Part shown: one piece after another, positions 18,001 to 21,000 of the stretch | How the letters are laid out: the number at the start of each line of letters is the position of its first letter | Numbering within the stretch: the stretch's first letter is position 1 | Origin: a virus | Taxonomy: Duplodnaviria; Heunggongvirae; Uroviricota; Caudoviricetes | IMG/VR virus record: IMGVR_UViG_2563366867_000009 | Length of the DNA: 48,304 nt | Direction: 5' to 3' (one strand) | Made by a program: the position numbers

Positions 18001-21000
18001 CACCCGGGCAAGCTGCGCATTCATCAGGCTGTTGTTCTCGCCAAGGTCAGCCAGCCTTGCCACGCGGGGCAAATATCTGGTTCGCCAGTCGTCGTATTGT
18101 TGGCGTGTCAGCGCTGCTGACGTCTGCCAGTCACCCTGTGGGCGGGCTGCGCCTGAATAACCAGCCCTTGCGAGAGTTTCGTATTTGCCATACTCCATAA
18201 TTACAGTCTCCAGTTCTGAGCCTGATGCTGAATAGCATTAGCGCCGGTGCCTGGCGTTTTAGCGCCGCCACCACCTCCGTTACCGCCAGCCTTATGCATC
18301 GCGTACGCACCTACAGCTCCCAGACCAGCGCCAACAAGAGAAGCTCGCCCCTGTTGTTTCGTAAACGCCGCCTGTGCATCCGATTTGGCTTTTGCCAGAC
18401 TGCTGTCAGCCAGGGAGTTAAAACTCTGTAACGCATCTGCCTTCTGACCGGAACCGAGAGCCGCAACATCCTGTAGCCCGGCAATATATTTATCTGCCTG
18501 CGATACCTGCCCCCGTGTGGTCGTGTCAATCTGCCCGATCACCTGGTCGCTTTGATTTGCATCCATTACTGCATTAAAACGACCACTGGATGGGTCAACG
18601 CCGGACTGAGCAAGATTACCCGCCAGCTCCCTTCGCGCTTCACCAAACTGTTTCTGATACCCAAGATTTGTTGTGCCTGCGATATTTTCGTACTGCTGCT
18701 CACTGTTAAGGTCATCGACCTTTTTCATGAAGTTATCTTCTGCCGGACGGAGAATATTTTTGTAATCCTGCCACCCTTTCCAGGCCACCTCTTCCTGTGC
18801 TATTTGCGCTGCTGTTGGTTTTACTTTGGTATCACCACCACCTTTACTTCCGCCCATAATGGCTCCTCAGATAACAAAAAACCCTGCCGGAGCAGGGTCA
18901 GAATGTGAATTGCAATGTGGGTTTACGCTCGATGATGAATACAGTGGCAGTCAGACTGCTATCCTGAACACCATGAAGCCATCCTCATCATCCGGCATTC
19001 GCTCAAAGCCCAGACGTTTTCCCAGCCGGATAAATCCTCGTCTTGCCGTATGAAATTCGGCCCAGCGTCCGCCAGCCAGGCGGGTTAATGTCTTCACCTC
19101 CGGCAGATAACGCTCAACACTCTTACTCCCCGTACACACGCCCAGTAACACCAGAACATAAGGGATACCATCGTCACTGAGCACAGAACGCAGCACCAGA
19201 AAACCATCCGGTGCCTCAAAGCAAAACGCCTGCTTTTTAAGGCCGGCGTCTTTAACTTCATTCATAAATTCAGGGTTGCGGGAATTTCTCACAACACGCT
19301 GCATATACCGGAGAATTGTGTCGTCCATTCTCTCACCAGAAACGGGTGCCATATCGGCTGAACCTCAGCAACCAGTTGACGGGGACTTTCGTCCCCGTCG
19401 CGGTTTTCCTACTGCTTACACTGTAAGAACGCCGCAAACTCCGCTCCCCACAAATTCAGCCGGAACTCACACAACGAGCCGTGTAACATCCAGATGGTGA
19501 AGATTACCGTCATACAAATTGTGACGGTGATGAGCGATTTTTGCGACATAGCGCTTGCCTCCTGAGTGGAGAGGCGCTAACCTTCTACTTGCTTAAGGTA
19601 TGATGGTTAGGGCCTCGGGTTAAACAAAATGTTTGACTCGGGGCCTTTCCACATCAGGCCTTCAGGTTCTCCCTCCAGCCATCAGCCGAAAGGCACCCGC
19701 GCATAATCTACGATTTTTGCCCTGCACGGGCAACAAAAAACCCGCCATCACAGCGGGTTATGACATGTTGTCGGGTATTACTCAGAATTTCAGGCCAATG
19801 CCTGCAAATAAACCATCAGTTTTCCAGTCGCCAGAGCCTGAGCTTTCATAAGTGACGTCCATAGTAACACTTTCATTGAAGTTAAATTGCGCGCCGACAG
19901 ACCATGCAATAGACGTTTTTTTGGTGCTGTTACTTTCAGAAAAACTACCGGCACCATGATTAAGATTGTCGTTAATTTTCAAGTCAGTGGTGACTTTTGC
20001 AACCCCCATGCCAGCCATTGCATACACACTGAGGTATTCGTTAAACCGCCACGAAGGACCGGATAGTAGACTCCAGTAATTAGCCCTGATATCAGTTCTC
20101 GCTGAAGCTGCCGGGTTTTTTACCTCTCGTGATGGATCGGAAGGCTTAACATCAATAAATGCCTGCGCATTAGTCATGGAGCGCGCCCATGTAAAAGAGG
20201 CTATAACACCCAGTTCATCAGTTATCTCGTAACGATACCTGATGCTCATCCCCAGGGGGCTTTTGGCTGTGCCGTCATGCCCCCGGGCAATAGCATTTTC
20301 GTATTCAGCTGATGAATTAAAATGGTTTACGTTTACAACATTCCTGAACGTATCCCGGTTATAAACACCCGCGTCTCTAACAAAATCCTTCAGCCCGGGG
20401 AAGCGTATGTGTGCAAACCCGAGAGATACCGTACTATCGCCTGATGCTGCATTTACCTGTGCAGTTAAGCAACTCATCACCAGAACTGCACACGCAAAAA
20501 ATTTCATGATACTTTTCATTTTAAGTATTTCTCTGAATTAAAGGATGCGATGTCTGAAAGGAACGCTTTCGTTTTACACTATTAAAGTTTTTCTTACGCT
20601 AATCATATATTGAGGAATTAATAACCAGAACTTTATCTATATACGGCTTTCGGATATCCCATGTTGCACCACCGGAATAATGCTCACAGGAATATATTTT
20701 ATTTCCTGTAGCACCAGTGGATGTGGTGTAAATCGGTCGGTCATAAGGTGTTCGTTTCCAGTTATAATATCCAACCAGTGCAGGCATAATTGCGCATGGA
20801 TATCCAAGGTCCTTCTCAAACTTGATATCAACTGGTATTAACTTCGCGTCAAGCAGCATCATTTCGCCATGGTAAATCATCTCACCCGACGGGTTATACA
20901 TGGCGATACCATACTCAGAAGGTTGAGTAACCATATTCGCAAAAGCATAAACAGTCGTAACACCGGGATTCGTTCCCCTGACAATTTGATGAAGCCTTAA

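Follow-up and report, generated by a model that had tools for sequence, protein, structure and literature searches.

Hok synthesis from plasmid R1 requires that mok be translated as far as the ribosome-binding site of hok (PMC9841398), and therefore a hok copy that lacks mok might be translationally silent. The window analyzed here, a 48,304-nt stretch of DNA from a Caudoviricetes virus (IMG/VR record IMGVR_UViG_2563366867_000009), carries such a copy on its minus strand, directly after lom. We asked what kind of locus this is, how its RNAs might fold and be controlled, and whether its Hok peptide is still maintained.

The gene after lom encodes an already catalogued Hok toxin

The small gene after lom is a genuine Hok membrane toxin gene, and one that has already been catalogued. 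Its minus-strand ORF encodes the 46-aa peptide MSQKSLITVTICMTVIFTIWMLHGSLCEFRLNLWGAEFAAFLQCKQ; the original prediction had recognized an ORF of this length and strand but placed it one base off, at 19410..19550 (corrected in Table 1). The assignment to the Hok/Gef family was borne out by a Pfam profile search, in which HOK_GEF (PF01848) matched with 33.2 bits, above the gathering score of 22 (E = 4e-8), residues 8-44 of the peptide aligning to profile positions 6-42 of 42. PHROG 251 matched with E = 2.8e-24. The length fits the ~45-55 aa expected of Hok peptides, and a hydrophobic stretch, in keeping with the expected N-terminal helix, spans L6-L22. In the logo of a 2025-26 preprint surveying Hok peptides, M1, C16, T18, L30, C31, E32 and E41 are conserved in >80% of the peptides (bioRxiv 10.1101/2025.08.07.668861); all seven are present in the window peptide as M1, C12, T14, L26, C27, E28 and E37, with a spacing that matches the logo. 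The strong AGGAGG Shine-Dalgarno sequence described earlier was also found, at 19563..19558, and its AGGAG is invariant among relatives.

The gene had been called unannotated, which holds for the ORF track that the earlier reader had but not for the databases: RefSeq contains the identical peptide as WP_000078907.1, labelled 'Hok/Gef family protein', and PHROGs places the gene in family 251. The peptide is moreover identical to 72_1589 of the Hok survey, which was placed on plasmid LRP157, behind an arabinose promoter and a constant ribosome-binding site, and included in the toxicity-tested set; the only peptides that the survey names as non-toxic are 19_179, 60_1482 and 69_1540 (bioRxiv 10.1101/2025.08.07.668861). 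What we say of the toxicity of the window peptide is taken from this literature, namely the preprint's test of the identical 72_1589, which is not listed as non-toxic. Since the gene is annotated in RefSeq, belongs to a PHROG family and appears in a survey that tested toxicity, finding it adds nothing in itself. The value lies in the regulatory anatomy, a part that the survey explicitly omitted: Mok and Sok were left out as hard to predict, and the coding sequence alone was analyzed (bioRxiv 10.1101/2025.08.07.668861).

The module, a cluster-72 Hok locus, is present in 1749 of 5426 complete E. coli genomes, about one third of them, mostly on lambdoid and P2-like prophages. It moves as a unit between four genomic contexts, with the same borders in each. 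A scan of one genome per species for relatives outside the Enterobacteriaceae yielded only 5 loci, of which three (labelled Xanthomonas, a Planococcaceae MAG and Vagococcus) were set aside, as their labels are implausible and they look like contamination. That the unit is conserved in 1749 genomes and in four contexts, together with the Pfam, PHROG and Rfam matches and fold z-scores of -6 to -8, leaves no credence for a chance combination of an ORF and hairpins in an intergenic spacer, which the small size of the ORF, and nothing else, would favor.

Borders of the module and the predicted hok promoter

The gene upstream, lom, belongs to the context and lies outside the module, whose upstream limit is the lom terminator; in other contexts, the flanking sequences of relatives no longer agree upstream of the TTGCC box. 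This box lies in the predicted hok promoter (Table 1), from which transcription would start at G19698. Its TTGC and TA.A.T are invariant in nine relatives from the four genomic contexts, and the first position of the Rfam sok model falls on 19698 in the window and on the equivalent base in the relatives. A promoter scan at default stringency called neither this promoter nor the Sok-like promoter described below. At the other end, conservation among relatives stops just past GGCACCC. The block was originally described as bracketed by terminators. This holds for the upstream side, where the lom terminator lies; on the other side, no U-tract follows the hairpin 3' of hok when read on the hok strand, and the conserved unit extends ~35 nt further to an fbi-like element. 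The conserved stretch of ~390 bp (about 19733..19343) is, as modeled from these borders and the folds below, a complete hok/Sok-type module.

Table 1 Features of the hok module and its upstream neighbor in the window
Feature	Position	Strand	Details and basis
lom (Ail/Lom outer-membrane protein)	19782..20519	-	Pfam Ail_Lom, 102.7 bits; PHROG 108 'Lom outer membrane protein'
lom intrinsic terminator	19731..19759	-	9-bp stem; T run following 19759..19739; terminator scan
hok promoter (predicted)	19705..19733	-	-35 TTGCCC 19733..19728, 17-nt spacer, -10 TAGATT 19710..19705
Full-length hok mRNA (predicted), ~360 nt	19338..19698	-	MFE fold and conservation
tac-like 5' element GGGUGCCUUUCGGCUGA	19675..19698	-	Folds of full-length, truncated and nascent RNA
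ucb-like box GGAAAGGCCCC	19640..19650	-	Predicted folds
hok Shine-Dalgarno AGGAGG	19558..19563	-	8 nt from ATG; read from sequence
hok ORF	19409..19549	-	46 aa; ATG at 19549, TAG at 19409
GC hairpin GACGGGGAC-GAAA-GUCCCCGUC	19378..19399	-	9 pairs, just 3' of stop codon
fbi-like 3' element UCAGCCGAUAUGGCACCC	19343..19360	-	Complementary to mRNA 5' end, 7 + 8 pairs; MFE
Sok-like promoter (predicted)	19555..19583	+	-35 TTGCCT 19555..19560, 17-nt spacer, -10 TAACCT 19578..19583
Sok-like antisense RNA (predicted), ~60 nt	19589..19651	+	Ends inferred

Predicted folds of the hok mRNA

The promoter directly past the lom terminator would give rise to an mRNA of ~360 nt. The minimum free energy (MFE) of this RNA is -158.5 kcal/mol (z = -8.2 against shuffles), and the structure is closed by pairing between its 5' and 3' ends. 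The tac-like and fbi-like elements contribute 15 pairs to the MFE structure, which is the long-range 5'/3' pairing of the R1 paradigm, and this pairing may lock the full-length RNA closed. Mean column identity of the tac-like element is 0.99, and 91.9% of the tac/fbi cells are paired across 56 relatives, compared with 31-52% for a slid partner. As its two arms hardly vary, tac/fbi gave no covariation across the 56 relatives, and RNAalifold applied to the whole alignment picked a local 5' hairpin over the long-range closure.

The predicted folds assign tac a different partner in each form of the RNA: fbi in the full-length transcript, the ucb-like box once the 3' end is trimmed and, while the RNA is still nascent, the adjacent GGCUGGAGGG. 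In the full-length fold the partner of the ucb-like box, a block nearly invariant in the 56 relatives, is the GAGG region; in the 3'-truncated fold it is tac, and there the Sok target is predicted to open from 0.24 to 0.46. Trimming of the 3' end back to the GC hairpin could release tac to pair with GGAAAGGCCCC and make the leader more accessible. The unpaired probability of the hok Shine-Dalgarno sequence, which pairs with CUCC immediately upstream in the predicted folds, hardly differs between the full-length (0.18) and truncated (0.24) forms.

The GC hairpin at which trimming would stop is real, as had been proposed for 19377..19408, with a 9-pair core and a GAAA loop. Its energy including the outer pairs is -22.8 kcal/mol, and two of its pairs covary (AU 32 / GC 23 and CG 25 / AU 24 / GC 5). 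The terminator scan calls it on the plus strand only, and a U-tract is absent on the hok strand. By analogy with R1 (PMC9841398), the hairpin probably protects the 3' end of the processed hok mRNA as a stem-loop rather than acting as a terminator.

A candidate Sok-like antisense RNA on the plus strand

The original prediction had pointed to a leader stem-loop that is stable in the plus-strand transcript and would fit a Sok-like antisense RNA. Folding upheld this: the plus-strand RNA of 19609..19647 forms 18 continuous pairs (-27.0 kcal/mol, z = -7.7), whereas its minus-strand copy has three interior mismatches and reaches only -13.3 kcal/mol. We folded each variant separately on both strands, dropping column-wise pair counting because indels shift the inner stem, and the plus-strand hairpin was the more stable in 31 of 31 distinct relatives (mean -23.8 vs -13.1 kcal/mol). 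The predicted antisense RNA would consist of a single-stranded 5' tail of ~20 nt, the 18-bp hairpin and a terminal UUUCC, and its fold has an energy of -30.3 kcal/mol (z = -6.2). Its putative promoter overlaps the hok ribosome-binding region, and the complements of this promoter, AGGTTAGCGCCT and CAAG, are invariant in 56 relatives and line up with matching blocks in the sok consensus of Rfam. The segment targeted by the antisense tail is the most variable of the module (identity 0.78, 22 variants in 53) and lies between nearly invariant blocks.

A search of Rfam, which had been proposed as a check, returned a full-length match to RF01794 (sok) with E = 1.3e-7; its score of 42.1 bits falls short of the gathering threshold of 59, and the matching strand is the hok-sense strand, not the plus strand. 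The match begins at the predicted transcription start and ends at the hok ATG. The scores of eight relatives (nine module copies), 37.5-50.5 bits, likewise all stay under the threshold of 59. With its members at 37-50 bits, the branch is missed by Rfam, and Sok-type RNA has therefore never been annotated beside these hok genes.

The plus-strand hairpin could also be read differently, as the mere complement of a structure needed in the hok mRNA leader, or as a terminator of unrelated plus-strand transcription rather than of an antitoxin, with hok governed by mRNA folding alone. Such a reading agrees with the Rfam match to the sense strand, with a Sok-like promoter that fits the consensus at only 7 of 12 positions and went uncalled in the scan, and with a U-tract after the hairpin of only UUU. 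The G-U pairs, however, give the plus-strand hairpin ~10 kcal/mol of extra stability in 31 of 31 variants, which is unexpected under selection on the sense strand; the complements of the putative -10 and -35 are invariant and positioned as in the family consensus; and the interval between promoter and hairpin is hypervariable, as for an antisense specificity region. We consider this alternative highly improbable.

An antisense RNA is the reading that we carry forward. Transcription from the plus-strand promoter over the hok ribosome-binding region would produce an RNA of ~60 nt ending in the 18-bp hairpin. If R1 hok/Sok and hokW-sokW are a guide, the RNA may pair with the mRNA leader and trigger RNase III cleavage, so that Hok would be synthesized only once the short-lived antisense RNA is gone. 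We are highly confident that the locus belongs to the hok/Sok family of modules. Described more fully, the region is very probably a moron: a type I toxin-antitoxin module of the hok/Sok type that a lambdoid prophage resembling 933W and Sp5 carries after lom.

Hok is maintained without an overlapping mok frame

The missing overlapping mok frame is the sole unusual feature of the module, and a modest twist on the known architecture. The frames reading toward hok close 27, 43 and 35 nt upstream of its ATG, in agreement with the original statement that all frames are closed within 50 nt, and no ORF started by ATG, GTG or TTG enters hok. At the position of the R1 mok start, the window reads AUC AUA CCU UAA in the mok frame. 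Among 58 distinct relatives, a mok-type upstream ORF is absent in 37 and present in 21, starting at the inconsistent positions -130, -103, -76 and -46.

An ATG at 19654 (GAUGUGG, after GAAGG) was considered as a mok start and rejected: its ORF in the window has 15 codons and stops 60 nt before hok, and the same conserved ATG in relatives falls in all three frames, opening ORFs of 1 to 61 codons. Because frame and ORF length vary in this way, the ATG is conserved as RNA, as part of the ucb/tac pairing, and not as a coding start.

The hok ORF itself is intact in 58 of 58 distinct modules, encoding 46 aa in 57 of them and 45 aa in one. Its dN/dS is 0.1-0.6, lineages without mok included, and 0.17-0.46 in comparisons of deeply diverged lineages, none of which has mok (dS reaching about 1.9). 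Comparison of the window hok with that of one relative (L010) gave seven synonymous and no non-synonymous changes. The Hok peptide is under purifying selection.

These data bear on the possibility raised at the outset, that the loss of mok ended Hok synthesis and left a translationally silent, decaying copy, a relic or merely a source of RNA. In R1, mutation of the mok start or nonsense mutations in mok abolish Hok synthesis; in the window every frame is closed within 43 nt of the hok ATG, and the AUC AUA CCU UAA sequence occupies the place where R1 mok starts. Upstream ORFs in the mok frame persist in 21 of the 58 relatives, so mok may be ancestral. Pedersen and Gerdes (1999) reportedly found the majority of hok loci on the E. 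coli K-12 chromosome to be inactivated, which would fit the same picture. Decay is at odds, however, with an ORF intact in every distinct module, with the dN/dS values across diverged mok-less lineages, and with the continued conservation of the ribosome-binding site, both promoters, tac, fbi and both hairpins; the scattered starts of the mok-type ORFs also speak against it. On balance, a silent copy appears unlikely.

A more far-reaching reading, to which we give somewhat less than an even chance, is that the cluster-72 Hok loci form a natural mok-independent branch of hok/Sok, in which Hok would be translated directly from its own strong ribosome-binding site, with the tac/fbi/ucb switch and the Sok-like RNA controlling that site without translational coupling. 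As no mok frame is present, any synthesis of Hok would have to initiate at its own AGGAGG site, a step on which we are about evenly divided.

If the branch is indeed mok-independent, mok, obligatory in the R1 paradigm, would be shown to be dispensable. An abundant prophage-borne branch making Hok without mok would offer a simple natural system for studying the hok mRNA switch and the role of Sok without coupling. The branch could further serve to examine a contribution of such modules to prophage maintenance, to the timing of lysis (as for hokW-sokW) or to the exclusion of other phages.

Comparison with known systems

Within the survey of Escalera-Maurer et al. (bioRxiv 10.1101/2025.08.07.668861), Hok cluster 72 comprises both the window peptide (72_1589) and its relatives on P2 prophages (72_1621); the RNA architecture and the mok status described here are absent from that survey. 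Among the named chromosomal Hok proteins, HokA of E. coli K-12 (NCBIfam NF007290) is the closest by profile (E = 9e-10), but the score of 38.4 bits is far under the equivalog cut-off of 89, and orthology to HokA was rejected.

The hokW-sokW system of Sakai prophage 5 / 933W is likewise a hok/Sok-type module on an Stx-type lambdoid E. coli prophage. Its toxicity, neutralization by the antisense RNA and partial dependence on RNase III and Hfq have been shown, and after induction it contributes to lysis and to the release of phage (Takada et al. 2021, PMC8621323). It occupies another locus and encodes another peptide: HokW has 51 aa and starts with MKQQKAM, and the hokW primer sequence was not found in the window with up to 3 mismatches. 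Given the differing peptide length and N-terminus and the absent primer sequence, we rejected identity of the two systems. Whereas hokW-sokW has been studied experimentally, the lom-adjacent module is known here, in its native context, from sequence.

The parB (hok/Sok) locus of plasmid R1 differs from the window module first in mok, whose translation is mandatory in R1 and whose ORF is missing here. The window Hok has 46 aa instead of 52, its ribosome-binding site is stronger (AGGAGG with 8-nt spacing), its fbi appears as the 3' arm of the last hairpin rather than ahead of a separate terminator, and its Rfam score stays below the gathering threshold. In other respects the two are alike. The Hok of each is a small membrane peptide that has the conserved C..T and LCE motifs and is encoded on an mRNA of ~360-400 nt with tac/fbi closure of the 5' and 3' ends (in the window, a predicted fold). 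Both have a ucb-like box, with a GAGG motif where the mok ribosome-binding site sits, and a stable stem-loop directly 3' of hok. R1 also has an antisense promoter over the hok ribosome-binding region and an antisense RNA of ~60 nt ending in a long hairpin, and for both the window has a predicted counterpart.

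Identity and distribution of the hok locus

As the original prediction had proposed, the 46-codon ORF of the window belongs to the Hok/Gef family. The peptide exceeded the Pfam HOK_GEF gathering score of 22, at 33.2 bits, and matched PHROG 251, whose label 'MokW-like host killing' is apparently misapplied to Hok peptides, at E = 2.8e-24; the nearest named NCBIfam model, HokA, scored 38.4 bits, far under its cut-off of 89. The ORF lies one base from its predicted position (19409..19549 instead of 19410..19550), with the expected AGGAGG Shine-Dalgarno 8 nt 5' of the ATG. The element is very probably a hok/Sok-family type I toxin-antitoxin module.

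The ORF had been called unannotated, but it is annotated in phage Lyz12581Vzw and, as 'Hok/Gef family protein' WP_000078907.1, in RefSeq E. coli genomes. The locus is shared over 501 bp at 99.8% identity with Stx2a phages and Lyz12581Vzw, and of the 5426 complete E. coli genomes covered by a sensitive search, 1749 carry the module, at most nine times each. The peptide is identical to entry 72_1589 in the survey of Escalera-Maurer et al. (bioRxiv 10.1101/2025.08.07.668861), where it was cloned as plasmid LRP157, and contains, correctly spaced, all seven residues of the survey's Hok logo (conserved in >80% of peptides). In that survey (2025-26), which states that Mok and Sok were left unanalysed, 42 of the 45 Hok homologues tested were toxic, and 72_1589 is not among the three named as non-toxic. 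The module belongs to an already catalogued Hok cluster and is ordinary as a discovery. Identity with the published hokW-sokW of prophage Sp5 was rejected (HokW has 51 residues, beginning MKQQKAM, versus 46 here), and the hokW primer sequence was not found across the window. Modules identical or nearly identical to those of E. coli also occurred on contigs labeled Xanthomonas pisi (857 bp), Planococcaceae MAG and Vagococcus sp. (L011, L012 and L014), labels that most likely reflect contamination or mis-binning, not true hosts.

Features of the hok locus in the window
Feature	Position	Strand	Remarks
lom	19782..20519	minus	Pfam Ail_Lom; followed by hok
lom intrinsic terminator	19759..19739 + T run	minus	terminator scan; between lom and hok
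hok ORF	ATG 19549 to TAG 19411..19409	minus	46 codons; encodes MSQKSLITVTICMTVIFTIWMLHGSLCEFRLNLWGAEFAAFLQCKQ
9-bp GC hairpin	19378..19399	minus	just 3' of hok; no U-tract on hok strand
133-aa ORF	18951..19352	minus	downstream of hok; annotated ATG (19352..19350) within fbi
Predicted antisense -35	19555..19560	plus	TTGCCT; 17-nt spacer to -10
Predicted antisense -10	19578..19583	plus	TAACCT; after the 17-nt spacer
Predicted antisense RNA	about 19589 to 19651	plus	~60 nt; free 5' tail of ~20 nt

Borders and genomic contexts of the module

We aligned the window with relatives found in four genomic settings: Stx-type phages, where the module follows lom; P2-like prophages, where it follows ogr at the prophage end; the interval separating gpJ from a tail-fibre gene; and an O157 island close to the urease genes. 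The modules are conserved from a TTGCC box (19733) to just past GGCACCC (19343) and the flanks are unrelated; judged by this conservation, the unit exceeds the block (19377-19768) originally delimited. That block had been described as terminator-bracketed, which holds upstream, at the lom terminator. The predicted GC hairpin on its 3' side is present and covaries (AU in 32 sequences and GC in 23 at one pair; CG in 25, AU in 24 and GC in 5 at another). Its likeliest role would be that of the last stem-loop of the 3'-processed R1 mRNA, which shields the mRNA against exonucleases (PMC9841398); since it also lacks a U-tract on the hok strand, the 3' side is not terminator-bracketed. On the plus strand (19377..19400), the hairpin is followed by CGGTTTTCCT and was terminator-like by scan on that strand only.

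In P2-like prophages (L003, L007, L008 and L009), the module comes immediately after ogr/Delta, at the end of the prophage, beside differing attachment sites (serS, ihfA, a tRNA cluster), indicating a standard cargo position there too. One IMG/VR contig (L063) carries two complete tandem modules (877-1241 and 1349-1713, spaced ~470 bp) that differ in Hok peptide and antisense-target variant. A viral contig (L032:1349-1400) has unrelated sequence in place of the first ~45 nt of the module (tac and promoter), a natural 5'-truncated copy that retains the remainder with hok intact. Because the annotated ATG of the downstream 133-aa ORF falls within the 3' fold-back element (fbi, 19343..19360) and the PHROG 610 alignment begins only at residue 9, the true start is probably the second ATG (19328), the first eight codons probably being an over-extension of the annotation into the hok 3' end.

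A probable Sok-like antisense RNA

The predicted leader stem-loop, stable in the plus-strand transcript, was recovered at 19609..19647 with 18 continuous pairs (-27.0 kcal/mol, z = -7.7), whereas the minus-strand complement reached just -13.3 kcal/mol because the plus-strand G-U pairs turn into C-A mismatches. The plus strand was the more stable in all 31 distinct variants (means -23.8 versus -13.1 kcal/mol), among which the inner stem is not uniform. The complements of the candidate promoter elements TTGCCT and TAACCT are invariant in relatives and line up with the corresponding Rfam sok consensus blocks; the promoter matches only 7 of 12 sigma-70 consensus positions and was not called in a promoter scan of the window. 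No stretch of the module varies more than the target of the antisense tail, with a mean column identity of 0.78 (22 variants in 53 sequences) against 0.97-0.99 in the flanking blocks; this would be expected of a region that gives an antisense RNA its specificity where a genome carries several copies. Transcription of a Sok-like antisense RNA from the plus strand is likely.

The Rfam search proposed for Sok gave a match to RF01794 (sok) from the predicted transcription start to the hok ATG (19538..19698; E = 1.3e-7), but at 42.1 bits, under the gathering score of 59, and on the hok-sense strand. As the matched strand is hok-sense and the match stops at the hok ATG, the model describes the hok leader, not the Sok strand, despite its name. 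Nine module copies in eight relatives (L003-L008, L013 and L063) scored 37.5-50.5 bits, all below 59, so Rfam-based annotation misses this Hok branch. The sole Rfam family at or above threshold within the window was STnc100 (RF02076), matched over its full length at 44579..44795 (minus strand; 150.6 bits versus a gathering score of 47).

Predicted folding of the hok mRNA

The ~360-nt RNA from the predicted start, G19698, folds at -158.5 kcal/mol (z = -8.2), its 5' GGGUGCC..UCGGCUGA (tac) pairing with its 3' UCAGCCGA..GGCACCC (fbi). Across 56 distinct relatives, 91.9% of the tac/fbi pair cells hold standard pairs, versus 31-52% in a slid-partner control; there was no covariation to count in this set because both arms are almost invariant. 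The predicted folds would amount to a switch: the nascent 5' end forms a local hairpin, the full-length RNA is closed via tac/fbi, and in RNA cut after the GC hairpin tac re-pairs with a near-invariant GGAAAGGCCCC box. The antisense target is unpaired with a probability of 0.24 in the full-length fold and 0.46 in the truncated one, and the accessibility of the hok ribosome-binding site shifts slightly, from 0.18 to 0.24.

Translation of hok and comparison with R1

R1 strictly requires mok to be translated as far as the hok ribosome-binding site (PMC9841398). No ATG-, GTG- or TTG-started ORF runs into hok in the window; as originally noted, all three frames are closed within 50 nt (27, 43 and 35 nt upstream of the hok ATG), and the site matching the R1 mok start reads, in the mok frame, AUC AUA CCU UAA. 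An upstream-starting mok-frame ORF is present in 21 of 58 distinct modules, with inconsistent starts (-130, -103, -76 or -46), and absent from 37; among the 23 modules encoding the window's exact peptide, nine have one and 14 do not. A conserved ATG (19654) was rejected as a coding start, since across modules it lies in each of the three frames, with ORFs of 1 to 61 codons.

The hok ORF is intact in all 58 modules. Its dN/dS is 0.1-0.6 overall and 0.17-0.46 when deeply diverged lineages, none of them with mok, are compared, with seven synonymous and no non-synonymous changes between the window and one relative (L010), whereas ratios in the mok frame are near or above 1. The intact hok and its low dN/dS in mok-less lineages favor the peptide still being made without mok. 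This falls short of proof. Recombination appears to occur between leaders and coding parts, and the predicted ribosome-binding-site accessibility differs little between the two folds. We put mok-independent translation of Hok at slightly under an even chance. The branch is abundant and prophage-borne, and most of its modules lack mok.

Unlike R1, the window module has no mok frame. The predicted end pairing of its RNA corresponds to tac/fbi closure, the defining feature of hok mRNAs (PMC9841398), and the tac switch, as a prediction only, parallels the R1 model.
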